In this document: piece after piece, positions 8,855 through 15,578 of the stretch
Layout: each line of letters starts with the position of its first letter
Position numbering within the stretch: the stretch's first letter is position 1
Source of the DNA: Longimicrobiales bacterium
GTDB lineage: Bacteria > Gemmatimonadota > Gemmatimonadetes > Longimicrobiales > Gaopeijiaceae
Length of the DNA stretch: 64,000 nucleotides
Direction of reading: 5' to 3'
Assembly (NCBI GenBank): GCA_965238005.1
Contig: OZ250165.1
Span: forward strand, 1,024,001-1,088,000
Made by a program: the position numbers and the translations under genes
The notes under the pieces: model-generated
What the model was told of the DNA's origin: nothing
Databases searched by the model: none
The model's input: the letters and a program-made list of their open reading frames with translations, nothing else

Positions 8855-9012
8855 ATGCGTACCAAGGGAACAGTGAAGTGGTTTAACGACCAGAAGGGCT
8901 TTGGGTTCATCACGGCGGAGGACGGCAGCAAGGACTGCTTGTCCACCACAACTCGATTCAGGCGGAGGGCTTCAAGTCCCTCGCTGAGGGAGCCTCGGTG
9001 GTAGCGCTGTAG
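8855..9012 (+). pseudogene. Cold-shock protein, frameshifted and truncated
   Basis: [28 protein letters not shown], then in another frame [17 protein letters not shown]. Confidence 0.85.
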
Positions 9013-11126
9013 TGTCCGATCACGCTTCGGTGGTCGCGCAGGAACTCGGAGCGGCCGTCCAGCAGGTGCGGGCGACCTCCGAGCTCCTGACCAGCGGGGC
9101 GACGGTGCCTTTCATCGCCCGATACCGGAAGGAGGCCACAGGGTCTCTGGACGAGGTGGCGGTAGCCGCCGTCCGGGACCGCATGGCGCAGCTGGCCGAG
9201 CTCGACAAGCGCCGTGACTCGATCCTGGATTCGCTCTTGGAGAGAGGTCTCCTCGACGACGAGCTCCGACGTCGCGTCGTAGGCGCCGAGACCCTGCCGG
9301 CCCTCGAGGACGTCTATCTGCCCCACCGCCCGAAGCGGCGCACCCGGGCCATGGTGGCGAGGGAGCGGGGCCTGGAGCCTCTGGCGAAGGCCCTCTGGGC
9401 GCAGACCGGCGAATGGATCGACGTGGCGGTCTTCGTGGATCTCGAGCACGAAGTCGAGGACCGCGATGCCGCCCTCGCCGGAGCCAGGGACATCATCGCG
9501 GAAGACGTCAGCGAGGACCCGGAGGTCCGCCGCGATCTGCGTCATCTCTTCACCCAGCGAGCGCTCCTCGTCTCCACGGTGGTCAAGAAAAAGCAGGCCG
9601 AGGCGTCGAAGTTCCGGGACTATTTCGAGTGGTCCGAACCCCTTTCCCGGGCGCCGTCCCACCGGATCCTCGCCATCCTGCGGGGGAGCAACGAAGGCTT
9701 CCTCCGGGTGCAGGCGAGACCCGACGAGGCCGACGCCTTGGTGAGGCTGAGGCGGCGCCACCTGCGCGGGCACGGCTTCGACGGGGAGGAGGTAGGCCGC
9801 GCCCTCGACGATGCGTACAAGCGTCTGCTTCTCCCCAGCCTCGAGCGTGAAGCGCTGAAGGGGGCGAAGGCCCGCGCCGACAAGGATGCCATCCGGATCT
9901 TCGTCACGAATCTCCGTGAGCTCCTCATGGCGCCGCCCTTTCGGAACATACGGATGCTCGCCATAGACCCTGGCTTCCGGACCGGGTGCAAGGTCGTGGC
10001 GCTGGATGCCCAGGGAGCGCTCCTGCACAACACCACCGTATTTCCCACCCAGGGTCGGGGCCGGCGCGAGGCAGCCGAGCGGGTCGTCCGGGATCTCGTC
10101 CAACGCTTCTCCCCGGAGGCTGTCGCCGTCGGCAACGGCAAGGCGGGACGAGAGACCGAAGCCTTTATCAAGGACCTGGCCCTCGGGCCCACGGTGATCA
10201 TGGTCGACGAGAGCGGTGCGTCCATCTACAGCGCCAGTGACGTGGCCCGCGAGGAGCTGCCCGAGCACGACCTGACGGTCCGGGGTGCGGTCTCCATCGG
10301 GCGTCGCCTCCAGGATCCCCTGGCCGAGTTGGTGAAGATCGACCCCAAGTCCATCGGCGTAGGCCAGTACCAGCACGACGTGGATCAGACTGCGCTCAGA
10401 TCGGCGTTGGAAGACACCGTGGTGAGTTGCGTCAACGCGGTGGGCGTGGACCTCAACTCCGCCAGCGCGTCCCTTCTCACCTACGTGGCAGGGCTTGGGC
10501 CCGTGCTGGCCAAGAACGTCGTGCGCTGGCGTGACGAGAACGGCGCCTTTCGGACCCGGCGAAACCTGCTGAAGGTACCGCGGCTGGGCGGCAAGGCATT
10601 CGAGCAGGCGGCGGGCTTCCTCCGCATTCCCGACGGGTCACACGCTCTGGATGCGAGCGGCGTGCACCCGGAGCGCTACGCCCTGGTGGAACGTATGGCC
10701 AAGGACCAGGGATGTTCGGTAGGGGACCTGCTCACCGACCCGGGGCGCCGGAGCCGCATCGTCCTCGATCGCTACCTCGGTGAGGGTGTGGGCCGCCCCA
10801 CCCTGGACGACATCCTGGATGAGCTCGCCCGTCCGGGACGAGACCCCCGTCCCGCTTTCGAGGCCTTTTCCTTCGGCGACGTCCACGCCATCAGCGACTT
10901 GAAGCCCGGCATGGTTCTGCCCGGCATCGTCACCAACGTCACGGCCTTCGGTGCCTTCGTGGACATCGGCGTCCACCAAGACGGCCTCGTCCACGTGAGT
11001 CAACTAGCGGATCGCTACGTGAAGGACCCCAACGAGGTCGTCCGCATGCGTCAGCAGGTCCAGGTGCGCGTCCTCCAGGTCGACGTCGAGCGGAAGCGCA
11101 TCGGCCTTTCGATGAAGGAGGGGTAG
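9012..11126 (+). CDS. tex: Tex family RNA-binding transcriptional accessory protein
   Basis: GATVPFIARYRKE, IDPGFRTGCK, DPKSIGVGQYQHD, C-terminal S1 domain. Confidence 0.95.
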   Translation: MSDHASVVAQELGAAVQQVRATSELLTSGATVPFIARYRKEATGSLDEVAVAAVRDRMAQLAELDKRRDSILDSLLERGLLDDELRRRVVGAETLPALEDVYLPHRPKRRTRAMVARERGLEPLAKALWAQTGEWIDVAVFVDLEHEVEDRDAALAGARDIIAEDVSEDPEVRRDLRHLFTQRALLVSTVVKKKQAEASKFRDYFEWSEPLSRAPSHRILAILRGSNEGFLRVQARPDEADALVRLRRRHLRGHGFDGEEVGRALDDAYKRLLLPSLEREALKGAKARADKDAIRIFVTNLRELLMAPPFRNIRMLAIDPGFRTGCKVVALDAQGALLHNTTVFPTQGRGRREAAERVVRDLVQRFSPEAVAVGNGKAGRETEAFIKDLALGPTVIMVDESGASIYSASDVAREELPEHDLTVRGAVSIGRRLQDPLAELVKIDPKSIGVGQYQHDVDQTALRSALEDTVVSCVNAVGVDLNSASASLLTYVAGLGPVLAKNVVRWRDENGAFRTRRNLLKVPRLGGKAFEQAAGFLRIPDGSHALDASGVHPERYALVERMAKDQGCSVGDLLTDPGRRSRIVLDRYLGEGVGRPTLDDILDELARPGRDPRPAFEAFSFGDVHAISDLKPGMVLPGIVTNVTAFGAFVDIGVHQDGLVHVSQLADRYVKDPNEVVRMRQQVQVRVLQVDVERKRIGLSMKEG

Positions 11127-11661: not shown

Positions 11662-11807
11662 CGTTCAGCGCCCACCCGAGCTGTTTGAAAACGATGCATG
11701 CGCGCCGGCGTTCCAAGCGCCCGGCGGCGTGTGGTGCTGAAAGAAAGAGACGCGACTCCCTGGACGCACCGCACGTCGTCGGTGCGTTTGGGCGGACCAG
11801 CAGACAA

Positions 11808-11927
11808 GGGGGCTGTAGCTCAGTCGTTAGAGCACTAGCCTCACCATTCATTCGCCCGCTTCTCGCGGGCCGAAGGCAGAGGATTATCGGAACCAAGTGG
11901 TCGCGGGTTCGAGTCCCGCCAGCCCTC
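11808..11927 (+). ncRNA. Y RNA (YrlA)-like tRNA mimic
   Basis: Acceptor stem, D arm (GCTC/GAGC), T arm (GCGGG-TTCGAGT-CCCGC); anticodon arm replaced by a ~60-nt stem with GCCGAAGG and a bulged C. Confidence 0.6.
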
Positions 11928-11994
11928 CTGCCTCTGTCTGATCGCCGGAAACAAGCTGCGTGAGCAGCGGCATCACTAGGTCTTGTGAGTTGTT

Positions 11995-12067
11995 TGCAGG
12001 GTAGGTGAGAGGCACCTCTCCGGGTCTCATGACGCGGAAACCGTGGGTTCGATTCCCGCCCCTGCGA
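11995..12067 (+). tRNA. tRNA-Met(CAT), degenerate
   Basis: TGCAGGG/CCCTGCG acceptor, CTCATGA loop, T loop TTCGATT; anticodon stem imperfect. Confidence 0.55.
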
Positions 12068-12072
12068 TCTAT

Positions 12073-12156
12073 GCCCCCGTGGCGGAACTGGTATACGCGG
12101 CCGGCTCAGACCCGGCTCCCGCATTCGGGTCGCAGGTTCGAATCCTGCCGGGGGTA
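12073..12156 (+). tRNA. tRNA-Leu(CAG)
   Basis: GCCGG-CTCAGAC-CCGGC, long variable arm, TTCGAAT. Confidence 0.9.
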
Positions 12157-12223
12157 CTGGGGTCGGGGCTAGCCCCTGCCGGAAGAATGCCGGCAAGAAG
12201 CCCGGTGAGGAGGAGGGAACTAT

Positions 12224-12307
12224 GGATGGTACCGTCGCATGGGCGGCAACCGGTCTTGAAAACCGGGGCGGCGTAACGGCTGGGGGGTTCGACTCCTCTG
12301 CCTTCCT
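12224..12307 (+). tRNA. tRNA-Ser(TGA)
   Basis: CCGGT-CTTGAAA-ACCGG, long variable arm. Confidence 0.8.
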
Positions 12308-12313
12308 CTTCTT

Positions 12314-12397
12314 GGAATGCGAGTCGCATGGTGCGCAAGGTGGTTGCTAGCCACTGAGGGGCTCACGCCTCGTCAGGTTCGATTCCTGGGCATTCCT
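12314..12397 (+). tRNA. tRNA-Ser(GCT)
   Basis: GGAATGC/GCATTCC acceptor, GGTGG-TTGCTAG-CCACT, long variable arm. Confidence 0.8.
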
Positions 12398-12403
12398 CTT
12401 TGG

Positions 12404-12474
12404 AGCGGTATGGGAGCGGTCTCCCGCCGGGTCTCATGAGCCTGGCCTGGTCGGTTCGACTCCGACTGCCGCCA
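12404..12474 (+). tRNA. tRNA-Met(CAT), initiator-like 1:72 mismatch
   Basis: A1xC72 mismatch, CGGGT-CTCATGA-GCCTG, GTCGG-TTCGACT-CCGAC. Confidence 0.7.
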
Positions 12475-12475
12475 T

Positions 12476-12548
12476 GTGGCCGAGGTCAAACAGGTTGCGG
12501 CACCGGGTTGTGAGCCCGGGGAAGTGGGTTCGAGCCCCACCGGCCACC
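12476..12548 (+). tRNA. tRNA-His(GTG)
   Basis: GTGGCCG/CGGCCAC plus C73, CCGGG-TTGTGAG-CCCGG. Confidence 0.8.
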
Positions 12549-12549
12549 T

Positions 12550-12623
12550 TGGGGTGTGATCGTGACTGGTAACGATCCGGTCTCTTAAACCGGTCCATGT
12601 GGGTTCGAGTCCCACCGCCCCGA
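12550..12623 (+). tRNA. tRNA-Lys(CTT)
   Basis: CCGGT-CTCTTAA-ACCGG, GTGGG-TTCGAGT-CCCAC. Confidence 0.8.
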
Positions 12624-12627
12624 CTAT

Positions 12628-12699
12628 AGACCTGTAGCTCAGCGGTAGAGCATCCGTCTAATACGCGGAAGGCCGAAGGTTCGACTCCTTCTGGGTCTA
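12628..12699 (+). tRNA. tRNA-Ile(AAT)
   Basis: Canonical cloverleaf; TCCGT-CTAATAC-GCGGA gives anticodon AAT. Confidence 0.8.
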
Positions 12700-12703
12700 C
12701 TAT

Positions 12704-12863
12704 TGGAGTGTGGCCGATGTGGCAAGGCACTCGGTTGTTAGCCGAGACCATGTGGGTTCGAGCCGAGCGGTCCAGATGTCTACCGCATATGTGGCCCAGT
12801 TCATCTTCCGCGAGACGACTGAGGATTTCCGAAGGCGACCGCAGGTCAATCCCACCGCTCCAG
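12704..12863 (+). tRNA. tRNA-Asn(GTT) interrupted in T loop by 87-nt insert (12762-12848)
   Basis: TGGAGTG/CGCTCCA acceptor, CTCGG-TTGTTAG-CCGAG, GTGGG-TTCGA[insert]AT-CCCAC. Confidence 0.85.
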
Positions 12864-12866
12864 CTT

Positions 12867-12941
12867 GGTCTTGTGGGGGAGTCAGGAGTCCCCGCCTGGT
12901 TGTCAGCCAGGAGATCGTGGGTTCGAATCCCACCAGGACCG
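12867..12941 (+). tRNA. tRNA-Asp(GTC)
   Basis: CCTGG-TTGTCAG-CCAGG, G73. Confidence 0.9.
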
Positions 12942-12962
12942 CTGCTTTATAGGCGATTTTTT

Positions 12963-13034
12963 GCCCCCTTCGTCTAATGGCTAGGATTGCGGCCTTTCAC
13001 GCCGCAGAAGACGGATCGAAACCGTCAGGGGGTA
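12963..13034 (+). tRNA. tRNA-Glu(TTC)
   Basis: GCGGC-CTTTCAC-GCCGC; atypical T loop ATCGAAA. Confidence 0.85.
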
Positions 13035-13037
13035 TCT

Positions 13038-13118
13038 GGAGGGGATGCCCCGGCGGTGGGGCAGCGGCCTGTAAAGCCGTGGCCATCGAGCAGGTTGGTT
13101 CGACTCCAACCCCCTTCA
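13038..13118 (+). tRNA. tRNA-Tyr(GTA)
   Basis: GCGGC-CTGTAAA-GCCGT, extended variable region. Confidence 0.8.
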
Positions 13119-13122
13119 CTAC

Positions 13123-13282
13123 AGAGTGGTAGCTTAGCGGCTAGAGCACGTGGTTCGGGACCACGGTGGCGTCGGTTCGAGCCGAGGCGGAGGTATGCTT
13201 ATCCGCGGTGCGGGCTAGAGGCAGACCGCCGAGACGAGCGAGGATCGCCGAAGGCGACCGCAGCTCAATCCGACTCACTCTA
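13123..13282 (+). tRNA. tRNA-Pro(CGG) interrupted in T loop by 87-nt insert (13181-13267)
   Basis: AGAGTGG/TCACTCT acceptor, CGTGG-TTCGGGA-CCACG, GTCGG-TTCGA[insert]AT-CCGAC. Confidence 0.85.
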
Positions 13283-13353
13283 TGACCCGTCGTCCAGCGG
13301 CAGGACACTGGGCTCTGAACCCAGAGACATAGGTTCGAATCCTATCGGGTCGG
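13283..13353 (+). tRNA. tRNA-Gln(CTG)
   Basis: CTGGG-CTCTGAA-CCCAG, ATAGG-TTCGAAT-CCTAT. Confidence 0.9.
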
Positions 13354-13358
13354 TTTAT

Positions 13359-13433
13359 GCACCGTGCGTCGTGCGCTGGGCGCAGGCGGGGCTCCAAACC
13401 CCGCCTTGCTGGGTTCGATCCCTGCCACGGGCT
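13359..13433 (+). tRNA. tRNA-Trp(CCA), degenerate
   Basis: CGGGG-CTCCAAA-CCCCG; imperfect acceptor, D and T stems. Confidence 0.6.
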
Positions 13434-13436
13434 CTC

Positions 13437-13507
13437 CCTCGCCGGGGGAATGGTCGGCATCGGGACTACGAATCCTGATTGCGGTGGTTCGACTCCACCC
13501 GCGAGGA
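13437..13507 (+). tRNA. tRNA-Arg(ACG), degenerate D arm
   Basis: CGGGA-CTACGAA-TCCTG, GGTGG-TTCGACT-CCACC. Confidence 0.65.
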
Positions 13508-13508
13508 C

Positions 13509-13577
13509 TGCTCCAGGGAAGGATTCCCCTCCGGGCTTCCGAAGCCTGGATGTCCGGTTCGAGTCCGGATGGGGCGA
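13509..13577 (+). tRNA. tRNA-Arg(CCG), shortened D arm
   Basis: CGGGC-TTCCGAA-GCCTG, TCCGG-TTCGAGT-CCGGA. Confidence 0.6.
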
Positions 13578-13609
13578 TACGGTTCGAGTCCGACTCAGAT
13601 CTCTCTCAT

Positions 13610-13685
13610 GCTCCCTTAGCTCAGTCTGGCCAGAGCGGCAGGCTTACATCCTGCGCCGGCGGAGGTTCGAATCCTTCAGGGAGTA
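13610..13685 (+). tRNA. tRNA-Val(TAC)
   Basis: GCTCCCT/AGGGAGT, GCAGG-CTTACAT-CCTGC. Confidence 0.9.
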
Positions 13686-13748
13686 CTGACCCGTAGCCCC
13701 TCTCGGCACTTTGCGGGCGTATTCAGCTTCGGCGACGCCCGCCCCCAA

Positions 13749-13900
13749 CTGGAAGTGGCGCAGCGGCTAGCGTACCTGCTTCGGACGCAGGGGGTCGGTG
13801 GTTCGAGCCGAGCGGTCAGTCAGTGCTCGAAGGGCACGGCGGTCTCTGCGAGACCAGCGAGGAGGGCGAAGCCCGGCGCAGCTGAATCCACCCTTCCAGA
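13749..13900 (+). tRNA. tRNA-Pro(CGG) interrupted in T loop by 79-nt insert (13807-13885)
   Basis: CTGGAAG/CTTCCAG plus A73, CCTGC-TTCGGAC-GCAGG, GGTGG-TTCGA[insert]AT-CCACC. Confidence 0.85.
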
Positions 13901-14084
13901 CTCCTGCCTTCCCCGTCACTCCGGACGGTACGGGGCCGTCCATCAACGTTCTCGCATAGCCGTCCTCATGATGTACATGGCATGTACTGTACATGTCCTA
14001 GAATGTCATTTTACAGACTCGAAATCGTTGGGTCACGCCGTGCTGTTGCCCATGCAAACTGTTGGTCTACAAGCAGTTAGATCG

Positions 14085-15578
14085 TGAGATGGTACCTCAC
14101 CACTGATAGGTAACGCTTTTCTCACCCCTGATGGGTGACAGTCTCGACCCGTAACGTGGCGCTCCTTCGACACGCTCTTGGAGCTGCCCATGCCATGGTT
14201 GGAGACCGATCCCATGAACGAACGCAAGCGATTCATCCTCGAGGCCACCGCGAGCCTCTTCTCCCACTCCGAACTCTGCCGACGCTACAACATCAGCCGC
14301 AAGACGGGCTACAAGTGGCTCGAACGATACGAGACCCAAGGACCCGACGGGCTGCTCGACCGCTCCCATCGGCCCCATTGCTGTCCCCACGCTACTGAGC
14401 CCCACATCCTCGAGGCTGCCTTCGAGCTCCGCCGTCGTCGACCCCGGTGGGGAGCTGCCAAGATCCTAGGCCGCCTCCTCGAGGTGCACCCCGACTGGTC
14501 GCTACCCGCGCCCCAGGTCCTGCACAGACACTTCCTGCGCGAGGGCCTGGTCAACAAGCTGCGGCGCCGACGTAAATCCTCTCATCCCGGTCGACCCACC
14601 GCGCCCTTCGATGCGCCCAACTCCATCTGGTCCGCCGACTTCAAGGGGCAGTTCAAGACCCTCGACGGCGTCTACTGCTACCCGCTCACCGTCCAGGATG
14701 GCTTCAGCCGCTACCTGCTCGCTTGTCAGGGCCTCTCAGGGACCACCTACGCCGGTTCCAGACGTGTTTTCACCCGCCTCTTCCACGAGTTCGGGATCCC
14801 CGACCGCATCCGTACCGACAACGGTACTCCCTTTGCCTCCATAGCCTTAGGGCGCCTCTCCAGGCTCTCCGTCTGGTGGATCAAGCTCGGCATCCTGCCC
14901 GATCTCATCGAGCCCGCATCTCCCCAGCAGAACGGCCGCCACGAACGCATGCACAAAGACCTCAAGGCTGAGGCCACCATCCCGCCCGCCGGAAACCGAT
15001 CCGCTCAGCAGAAACGCTTCAATGCCTTCCGCATTGATTTCAACGAGATCCGGCCCCACGAGGCCCACGGCCAGAGGCCGCCCGCCTCCGTCTACGAGCC
15101 CTCAACCCGTCCCTTCCCCAGCAAGCTCTTGACCCCCGACTACCCCGCCCACTTCGAGACCCGTAAGGTCTCCATCAACGGCGGCATCCGATGGCACTCC
15201 GCCTGGGCCAACGTCTCTCATCTGCTCGGCGGCGAATACATTGGCCTCGAGGAGGTCGCCGACGATGTCTGGGCTGTCTACTTCGGTCCCGTCGCCCTCG
15301 GTTGGCTTCACGTCCGAAAAGCTGCCATCCTCGATCACGATGGCTCCTCGTCCCGTAATCCACGACGCTGAGGCCGCGTGAACTGCCCAGCCCCTCAGAC
15401 GTCGACGCGAACCGCTACCTTCGTGGAACTCCGCTCGCTTCTACTCCCCTGCGCTCCGGCGCAGCGGAAGCTTCTGACTCCACCGGTGGAGGTAACAAAA
15501 AAAACAGCAGCTTACCTGACAAGAACTGTCACCCATCAGGGGTGTGTAACTGTTGGTACCCATCAGGGGTACCGCTCA
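14085..15578 (+). mobile_element. IS481-family insertion sequence
   Basis: Imperfect terminal IRs (TGAG..GGTACC...CACCCCTGATGGGTGACAGT) with internal repeats; no target duplication visible. Confidence 0.8.
14190..15371 (+). CDS. IS481-family DDE transposase
   Basis: HTH ISRKTGYKW, WSADFKG, IRTDNG, PQQNGRHERMH. Confidence 0.92.
   Translation: MPWLETDPMNERKRFILEATASLFSHSELCRRYNISRKTGYKWLERYETQGPDGLLDRSHRPHCCPHATEPHILEAAFELRRRRPRWGAAKILGRLLEVHPDWSLPAPQVLHRHFLREGLVNKLRRRRKSSHPGRPTAPFDAPNSIWSADFKGQFKTLDGVYCYPLTVQDGFSRYLLACQGLSGTTYAGSRRVFTRLFHEFGIPDRIRTDNGTPFASIALGRLSRLSVWWIKLGILPDLIEPASPQQNGRHERMHKDLKAEATIPPAGNRSAQQKRFNAFRIDFNEIRPHEAHGQRPPASVYEPSTRPFPSKLLTPDYPAHFETRKVSINGGIRWHSAWANVSHLLGGEYIGLEEVADDVWAVYFGPVALGWLHVRKAAILDHDGSSSRNPRR

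Follow-up and report, generated by a model that had tools for sequence, protein, structure and literature searches.

A small two-hairpin repeat with a T-loop-like target, possibly a mobile DNA mini-element, interrupts three tRNA genes in a Longimicrobiales bacterium

In a Longimicrobiales bacterium of the phylum Gemmatimonadota, three transfer RNA (tRNA) genes of one tRNA array are interrupted at the same position of the T loop by related structured inserts, hereafter called the module. The array lies in a window of 64,000 nt (G000:C1:1024001-1088000, the whole stretch of DNA that was analysed) in a 4.84-Mb genome, G000, which consists of a single contig with 64.8% G+C. We favour, with a probability of about 0.55, the reading that the module is a non-autonomous, orientation-specific and duplication-free mobile DNA mini-element that homes to T-loop-like sequence, and that the three array tRNAs are tolerated casualties. 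A non-autonomous DNA element targeting the TTCGA of T loops was one of the possibilities raised in the initial annotation, which was made from the sequence alone, and it is now supported by the copy number, the empty sites, the tandem arrangements, the patchy taxonomic range and the flank preference of the module.

The tRNA-Asn(GTT) gene and two tRNA-Pro(CGG) genes each read T-stem-TTCGA[insert]AT-T-stem, with inserts of 87, 87 and 79 nt as originally described and a boundary ambiguity of 1 nt (A|A) (Table 1). Deletion of the insert does restore a tRNA, as had been claimed: ARAGORN calls Asn(gtt), Pro(cgg) and Pro(cgg) across the junction in 3/3 cases, and RNAfold gives cloverleaf-like structures. 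On the intact sequence, ARAGORN truncates or mis-calls two of the interrupted tRNAs by borrowing insert bases, and the third is missed. Further tRNA-Asn(gtt) and tRNA-Pro(cgg) genes are found elsewhere in the genome. The inserts are not an assembly artefact, a danger that had been pointed out, because contigs from independent public runs cross them: 11750-13117 is covered by contigs of runs X1 (4199 nt) and X3 (3168 nt), 12630-12884 by a 255-nt contig of run X2 that shows 0 differences, and 13763-13939 or 13238-13950 by contigs of X1, X3 and X2. Genomes G001 and G002, of the same genus, do not share the array and match the inserts only, and an IS481-family transposase (domains HTH_28, rve and LZ_Tnp_IS481) is located directly 3' of the array; together these observations suggest that the array was acquired by horizontal transfer.

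All three inserts share the architecture initially proposed, GCCGA-P1-GAGAC-P2-GAGGA-P3(GAA loop)-CGCA-P2'-A, in which P1, P2 and P3 are helices. Nucleotides 1-3 (GCC) pair with the GAC of the conserved GAGAC, with one C.A mismatch, and the pairing of nucleotide 1 with the final base of GAGAC is reversed, G..C becoming C..G, in one copy each of four genomes (L021, L022, L023 and L028). Because nucleotide 1 pairs with the last base of GAGAC, the insert consists of two abutting hairpins (nt 1-55 and 56-86) followed by one A. In the first hairpin, G4A5 stands opposite G51A52 as a tandem GA, and P1 is GCGG/CCGC or GGCG/CGCC. P2 always has 4 bp, in at least seven different sequences, its 3' strand being the last 4 nt ahead of the terminal A, and it encloses a conserved GAGGA/CCGCA internal loop and the P3 hairpin with its GAA loop; a short form without P3 reads GAGAC-GATC-GAGCGCAGCGA-GATC-A. 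The module is 68-90 nt long, with both boundaries at helix feet, and the minimum free energy (MFE) fold of copy 2 alone gives back P1, the inner hairpin and P2/P3. The covariation reported for P1 and P2 was confirmed and could be extended, as P1 columns 7/53 and 8/52 switch between CG and GC among 11 own-genome copies. The model-fitted alignment A6 was evaluated over its first 27 rows, which are 26 full-length copies and one 5'-cut match (four rows from the own genome, the remainder from relatives). Here the 12 modelled pairs are nearly all Watson-Crick, with several pair types per position, while the wobble pairs, 4 G.T versus 2 A.C, are too few to separate RNA or single-stranded DNA from double-stranded DNA. 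The earlier view of divergent interiors within a kept structure was correct for the structure; the P1 interior, however, is not free-form, for an inner hairpin recurs in it, either as CCGC-N3/4-GCGG or as YCGAAGR.

Copies in the own genome were found by pattern, nhmmer and covariance-model searches, with a covariance model (R1) built from seven own-genome copies. R1 has 10 matches there at E<=0.01, three of them in the array. The left flank of these 10 copies is TTCGA in five and ATCGA, GTTCA, GGCGA and ACCGA in one each, one copy being partial; those at ATCGA^AT and ACCGA^AT (the caret marks the insertion point) are in non-tRNA DNA. Twenty-five full-length copies of the short form are nested in a ~270-bp MITE (miniature inverted-repeat transposable element) with GTGTGGTGTCCCAGAAGT terminal repeats, flanked on the left by CTCGA (19) or CGCGA (4) and on the right by ATGG (23). 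In 1/20 aligned MITE copies (4360816-4361021) the module is missing to the base, ...GGTGCTCGA|ATGGCCGAG..., with no duplication, and this empty junction (TCGA|AT) occurs once in the own genome according to BLAST on coordinates. The MITE family, exemplified by G000:C1:573468-573732, 1839395-1839667 and 4360816-4361021, exists in ~270-bp and ~120-bp forms; a deletion between CGAGCC repeats seems to have produced the ~120-bp form, and the family has no identified autonomous partner.

The second empty site was found in run X2, where a second, related strain is present (15 differences and 1 gap in the 182 bases of 11750-11931, ~92% identity, depth ~8.5). In a contig of this strain, 12760 is followed directly by 12848, so that precisely the 87-nt Asn insert is missing, and the contig is probably an insert-free tRNA-Asn DNA allele. 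The search for insert-free alleles thus yielded an exact empty site in the MITE and an apparent insert-free tRNA-Asn in X2, and as both skip the module alone, the data fit an element in which the module itself is the unit of insertion. At the tRNA-Val(TAC) locus the gene is plain in G001 and G002, and the own genome adds 24 nt, GTCCGGTTCGA, the module and ATCCGAT, bounded by a 14-nt direct repeat. The copy at 4747094-4747170 (L006) is orthologous, its locus and the copy both being kept in all three species of the genus with 94% column identity; it starts ~40 nt downstream of an ATG that has a ribosome-binding-like GGAAGGAG 5' of it, inside an open frame. No transposase was found upstream of the partial copy (c2050), and neither a regular-expression search nor nhmmer detected left and right module ends split around a cargo gene in the own genome.

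The target was characterised in 80 copies from relatives (bits >=32.5). The 5-nt left flank reads TTCGA in 43 and ends in GA in 57, the 2-nt right flank is AT in 61 and CT in 10, and most flanks extend to GGTTCGA on the left and ATCC on the right. The question of whether matches always sit at TTCGA^AT in tRNAs has a divided answer: the preference is real (TTCGA 43/80, AT 61/80), but it is not a rule, given the copies in the MITE, in non-tRNA DNA and in fragments. The copies with CT on the right correspond to the TTCGACT T loop of the transfer-messenger RNA (tmRNA) in L194. One copy (L239) sits at CCTGA^AT of an anticodon arm, which argues that sequence and not T-loop structure is recognised. 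Every inspected copy in tRNA- or tmRNA-derived sequence is in sense orientation relative to the tRNA (judged by eye and not tallied); a requirement for AT on the right would account for this, the reverse strand of a T loop reading TTCGA^AC.

Deletion of the module restores a tRNA in 0/80 of the relatives' copies, and an intact tRNA or tmRNA gene is present within 300 nt upstream in 37/78. Outside the window, modules reside in 3'-end fragments of tRNA or tmRNA genes beside the intact genes (Pro, Val, Cys, Ser and Arg; tmRNA in L194 and L027), and units located downstream of tRNA-Pro(GGG) or of tmRNA are seen again in several genera. A hairpin, GAACC-GNA-GGTTC, is often found just 5' of the module and ends in the GGTTCGA flank. 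Tandem arrangements occur as repeated units in L018, L057, L061 (period 142) and L032, as well as in L022, with head-to-tail module pairs in L027 and L229, and a direct repeat of up to 37 nt is present in L029.

In regard to taxonomic range, R1 at E<=0.01 has a match in 29/61 related genomes and in 21/36 of the organism's own family (f1), with up to 11 copies per genome; the 61-genome tallies include G037 and G056, flagged as unpublished, and no other claim rests on those two. Two sister families gave 7 weak matches (E 4e-4 to 8e-3), and the six that were checked (L033, L034, L035, L037, L039 and L040) are without the motif and the flanks. Across 151 genomes of the phylum at E<=1e-5, matches came from the own genome and 1/16 others of the family, and from 0/134 genomes of other Gemmatimonadota families. 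A pattern scan over one genome per species returned at least 119 stretches, and 8/80 loci rescored above 40 bits, all eight in metagenome-assembled genomes of Gemmatimonadota/Gemmatimonadetes; the remaining rescored loci among the matches listed, outside Gemmatimonadota, reached at most 29.2 bits. The module family was found only in one Gemmatimonadota family, and its distribution there is patchy. Viral carriage was considered and rejected, as none of the 26 pattern matches in IMG/VR exceeds 30.6 bits with R1, a level that chance matches in other phyla also have.

To our knowledge, bacterial tRNA genes have been described with two kinds of insertion, group I introns that interrupt the anticodon loop and entire islands located at the 3' end. 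We found nothing on small T-loop inserts or T-loop-targeting repeats of bacteria in the literature searched. Rfam has no family for the module, whether at gathering thresholds over the whole window, at E<=5 over 11700-14000 or at E<=0.05 over 10 loci with copies, so that the match to a known family that could have ended the claim of novelty did not appear. The nearest literature item is a preprint about the group I introns of tRNA anticodon loops; it notes that the T-loop of tmRNA may likewise harbour such an intron. We rate the module as a small structured non-autonomous repeat with an unusual target, absent from Rfam and from the literature searched.

Under the favoured reading of a mobile DNA mini-element, the module would fold as single-stranded DNA or RNA into its two abutting hairpins, with GCC/GAC, the tandem GA/GA, P1 and the inner hairpin in nt 1-55, and with the 4-bp P2, the GAGGA/CCGCA loop and an optional P3 in nt 56-86, then the A. 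Movement would take place at the DNA level, the insertion occurring in one orientation between GA and AT, preferably at GGTTCGA^ATCC, with neither terminal inverted repeats (TIRs) nor a target-site duplication. A trans-acting nuclease or recombinase that recognises the folded ends, HUH-like by analogy, could be responsible. As the T-loops of tRNA and tmRNA genes would be nearly the sole sites of the target sequence, copies would accumulate in tRNA-derived DNA; hits in essential tRNAs would be lost and harmless ones would persist, that is, in redundant array tRNAs, in tRNA/tmRNA 3' fragments and in the MITE, which, once hit, would have amplified the module. The three interrupted array tRNAs would accordingly count as inactivated genes. 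The right junction (..NTCA^ATCC) recreates the target, which would explain the tandem copies and the degenerate, module-like remnants seen on the 5' side, and new copies would land 3' of old ones.

The module can be compared with several known systems, among them palindrome-associated transposable elements (PATEs) and other small bacterial repeats. PATEs derive from IS200/IS605 and depend on a Y1 transposase for a single-strand, hairpin-guided transposition. Like the module, they are small and non-coding, are without TIRs and target duplication, have a fixed orientation and a hairpin at each end, and insert 3' of a short sequence; insertion 3' of a fixed tetra- or pentanucleotide is seen here as well (TTCGA in 43/80 relatives' copies and 5/10 own copies, with an unduplicated empty site). 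The module's last 4 nt before the right-end cut pair with the 4 nt 5' of the right hairpin (P2), resembling the pairing of guide and cleavage site in IS608, and its right end is a hairpin plus ~10 nt, as in IS200/IS605 HUH systems. However, the left and right hairpins are dissimilar, the ends lie at helix feet and the total length is 68-90 nt. As the Y1 transposase is missing (none in the own genome, 2/61 in the family), the module fails the defining test of a PATE. The copies outside tRNAs, which had been expected to indicate an ordinary MITE or repetitive extragenic palindromic (REP) sequence, do exist, but the module is not such a repeat, since inverted terminal repeats and a target duplication are both lacking and its target remains T-loop-like. 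It resembles Rickettsia palindromic elements, REPs, bacterial interspersed mosaic elements and MITEs in being lineage-restricted, non-coding, structured, present in tens of copies and located inside genes or other repeats. In contrast to MITEs, its ends, GCCGAG... and ...GNTCA, are not inverted repeats and the empty site TCGA|AT is unduplicated; unlike REPs, it has no RAYT/Y1 partner and combines a strict T-loop-like target with a fixed orientation.

Several observations weigh against the mobile DNA mini-element, the first being that no mobilising enzyme was identified among the candidates searched in the own genome and the family. The Y1 transposase (PF01797) is represented by 0 genes in the own genome and occurs in 2/61 family genomes, neither of them module-rich. 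The IS91-type Y2 transposase (PF04986) is present in 16/36 genomes of f1 but in 11/21 module-positive ones, and an IS91/Helitron-like element was rejected as the source of the module, the ends of the intact 7-copy element of G011 being unrelated to it. Large serine recombinases are too rare (6/36 f1 genomes, none in the own genome), so that none of these three enzyme types fits, and the gene neighbours of 24 loci are miscellaneous, with two tyrosine integrases (L023 and L171), one DDE transposase and the rest housekeeping. The non-MITE copies of the own genome have diverged from one another and give no sign of recent bursts. The X2 joint that skips the Asn insert is marked 'between: not known', and the type of that run is not on record. 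Conserved junction nucleotides together with covarying helices are the pattern expected of a functional RNA, and the three interrupted tRNA bodies are still well paired in RNAfold, a state that either splicing or recent insertion would lead one to expect. Finally, the recurrent GAACC-GNA-GGTTC hairpin and the duplicated tRNA 3' ends are explained only loosely. TnpB was also considered and discarded as a candidate, as the single TnpB-like gene of the own genome (PF07282) has no module at its end.

A first alternative is that the module is a new mobile bacterial tRNA intron, which we consider unlikely. After transcription with the tRNA, the module would be excised at A58|N59, through catalysis of its own or with the help of host nucleases and a ligase (e.g. 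RtcB); the tRNA would stay functional, and the intron would spread by homing or reverse splicing, leaving the fragment and MITE copies as dead ends. The precise ends at helix feet, the three well-paired tRNAs obtained by deletion, the sense orientation of all inspected copies in tRNA-derived sequence and the conserved fold with its covariation and conserved unpaired nucleotides all fit such an intron, and empty sites are also left by mobile introns. However, 0/80 of the relatives' copies are in a splice-restorable tRNA, 25 copies ride in a MITE, and the interrupted tRNAs are redundant and belong to a strain-specific array. The initial annotation saw no group I core, and indeed the Rfam scan of 11700-14000 at E<=5 gives tRNA-clan and chance matches only, with no group I or other ribozyme family; the small self-cleaving ribozymes (hammerhead, HDV, twister, pistol, hatchet and hairpin) have no Rfam match either, in the window region at E<=5 or in the 10 loci at E<=0.05. 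Group I introns have a catalytic core of ~200 nt or more, a U at position -1 and a terminal G. They resemble the module in that they interrupt bacterial tRNA-type genes and that the tmRNA T-loop can be interrupted, but at 68-90 nt the module is far below the size of known self-splicing introns, and it has A at -1 and A as its last base.

Archaea have non-canonical tRNA introns, at T-loop positions among others, which have been proposed to transpose between tRNA genes in Thermoproteales, and the module is comparable in being a short insert at a non-anticodon position, with related inserts in different tRNAs implying mobility. Those introns are defined by a bulge-helix-bulge motif and the endonuclease EndA, whereas the module resides in a bacterium without an EndA gene, with most copies outside functional tRNAs: the splicing endonuclease domain (tRNA_int_endo, PF01974) has 0 matches in the own genome and the control found it in 4 archaea, and inspection of the sequence and of MFE folds, made without a dedicated bulge-helix-bulge search tool, revealed no pairing between intron 5' end and 3' exon start that gives the motif. 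The ligase RtcB is encoded in the own genome and in 15/21 module-positive versus 7/15 module-negative genomes of f1, yet it was not found in G011 (1 contig, 11 copies) nor in G034 (9 copies). On balance the tiny spliced intron gained no support (0/80 restorable copies, no splicing endonuclease, RtcB not found in the 11-copy G011). A genuine new bacterial intron class, in which a mobile ~80-nt two-hairpin RNA would be excised at A58|N59 by a ribozyme or a protein pathway, seems doubtful; if true, it would be the bacterial counterpart of the transposing archaeal tRNA introns, and the fragment- and MITE-borne copies would be its fossil record.

It is likewise doubtful that the module is a recombination site, either folded and attC-like or an attP arm, of cassettes or islands that target tRNA and tmRNA genes. 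On this view a site-specific recombinase would have deposited the units of tRNA 3' end, spacer and module as cassettes, with the three array tRNAs representing events at secondary sites. This could account for the copies in duplicated tRNA/tmRNA 3' ends beside intact genes, often as direct repeats (14 nt at tRNA-Val and up to 37 nt in L029), for the tandem units of L018, L057, L061 and L032, for the tyrosine integrases that adjoin copies in L023 and L171, and for a 9-kb island next to the tmRNA gene of G018 with a large serine recombinase and repeated units on both sides. However, what comes and goes in the MITE and in tRNA-Asn is the module by itself, without any cassette content, 22/24 loci are without a nearby recombinase, large serine recombinases are rare and missing from the own genome, and no crossover-core repeat is found at both junctions beyond a single A. 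An integron attC site is one imperfect hairpin with R''/R' boxes (GTTRRRY). It shares with the module the conservation of structure over sequence, a similar size, cassette-like arrays in tandem and an insertion that is orientation-specific and occurs at a short motif, but GTTRRRY boxes were not seen at the module ends by eye, no IntI search having been made. At the G018 locus (L194, G018:C2:164500-177500), the tmRNA gene is followed by a ~190-nt unit made of a terminator, an inverted tmRNA 3' end, the module and a tmRNA 3' end; the 9-kb island, which also encodes a TonB-dependent receptor and a DUF4143 ATPase, has a copy of this unit on either side, and a Y2 transposase fragment adjoins the distal repeat.

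The last alternative, a retained T-arm extension in which the mature RNA would keep the insert as an additional arm of two hairpins after A58 of specialised tRNA-like or trailer RNAs, is highly improbable because most copies sit in fragments without a tRNA body, and also in view of the MITE-borne copies, the presence that differs between close relatives and the ~7/87 positions (hand count), conserved internal loop included, at which the orthologous copies L013 and L014 of G001 and G002 differ, a divergence that shows no special constraint on an in-place copy; in its favour are the insertion point right after the five-nucleotide T-loop motif (54-58), where other RNAs tolerate insertions, and the recurrence in several genera of units 3' of tRNA-Pro(GGG) and tmRNA. 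A related idea, that the tRNA-like units are Ro/Y-RNAs, was dropped as no TROVE protein is found in the own genome.

The features of the window and the dispersed copies of the own genome are compiled in Table 1. The array comprises ~19-20 genes, with a Tex-like gene on one side and the IS481-family transposase on the other; the definition of tRNA array units is that given in PMC4758250.

Table 1. Features of the tRNA array region (window positions) and module copies elsewhere in the own genome (positions on G000:C1)
Feature	Positions	Strand	Basis or remarks
Tex-like gene	9012..11126		window
tRNA array	11809..13901	+	17 tRNAs called by ARAGORN; also the tRNA at 11809-11927, seen by Rfam alone, and the second interrupted tRNA-Pro
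tRNA-Asn(GTT) 5' part, ends at T-loop TTCGA (A58)	12704..12761	+	ARAGORN tRNA-Asn gtt once insert is deleted
Module copy 1, 87 nt	12762..12848	+	domain 1 hairpin 12762-12816, domain 2 hairpin 12817-12847, terminal A 12848; R1 81.9 bits
tRNA-Asn 3' part (AT, T-stem 3' strand, acceptor 3' strand)	12849..12864	+	sequence, ARAGORN, RNAfold
First tRNA-Pro(CGG) 5' part, to TTCGA	13123..13180	+	sequence, ARAGORN after deletion
Module copy 2, 87 nt	13181..13267	+	R1 91.9 bits
First tRNA-Pro 3' part	13268..13282	+	sequence, ARAGORN after deletion
Second tRNA-Pro(CGG) 5' part, to TTCGA	13749..13806	+	sequence, ARAGORN after deletion
Module copy 3, 79 nt	13807..13885	+	R1 64.5 bits
Second tRNA-Pro 3' part	13886..13901	+	sequence, ARAGORN after deletion
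IS481-family transposase	14178..15371	+	HTH_28, rve, LZ_Tnp_IS481
Non-array module copy	1972327..1972409		own genome
Non-array module copy	4451379..4451464		own genome
Non-array module copy	2524110..2524189		own genome
Non-array module copy	2658690..2658768		own genome
Non-array module copy	1538590..1538668		own genome
Non-array module copy	4747094..4747170	-	own genome (L006)
Non-array module copy, partial	2050526..2050584		own genome

Some other stretches of the array are noteworthy as well. At 11809-11927 (+), an Rfam tRNA match (46.7 bits) spans 119 nt and contains a ~48-nt insert in the anticodon-arm region, with its own GCCCGC/GCGGGC hairpin and a sequence unrelated to the T-loop module; ARAGORN does not call this tRNA, even with the intron search on. 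The tRNA that ARAGORN calls at 11994-12069 (+) has a two-base anticodon, '(ca)', and an Rfam score of 28 bits, just under threshold, and is thus an aberrant gene within the array. The stretch at 13509-13609 (+) resembles a tRNA and has two successive T-arm-like segments (..CCGGTTCGAGTCCGG.. and ..CGGTTCGAGTCCG..); it gives a weak tRNA-clan match of 22.8 bits, is not called by ARAGORN and could be a tRNA that was rearranged. A second tRNA array of ~17 genes at G000:C1:4451264-4453598 (-) has the same gene order as an array of a related genus (L018) and looks like the housekeeping tRNA set; it carries one module in a duplicated tRNA-Pro 3' fragment. At L004 (G000:C1:2523950-2524350), a 23-28-nt motif at minus-strand positions 90-117 adjoins the copy c2524 and is a separate short dispersed repeat of the genus, found with 96-100% identity at dozens of sites in G001 and G002.

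A protein-less element of 70-90 nt that homes to a T-loop sequence implies an enzyme or an RNA route that reads both a two-hairpin fold and an 11-nt tRNA motif. The enzyme, if found, would represent a compact and highly site-specific insertion system, and if the RNA is spliced, the module would define a new intron class. On the practical side, the module makes tRNA finders mis-call or miss genes, and it marks 'graveyards' of tRNA fragments in the genomes of Gemmatimonadota.

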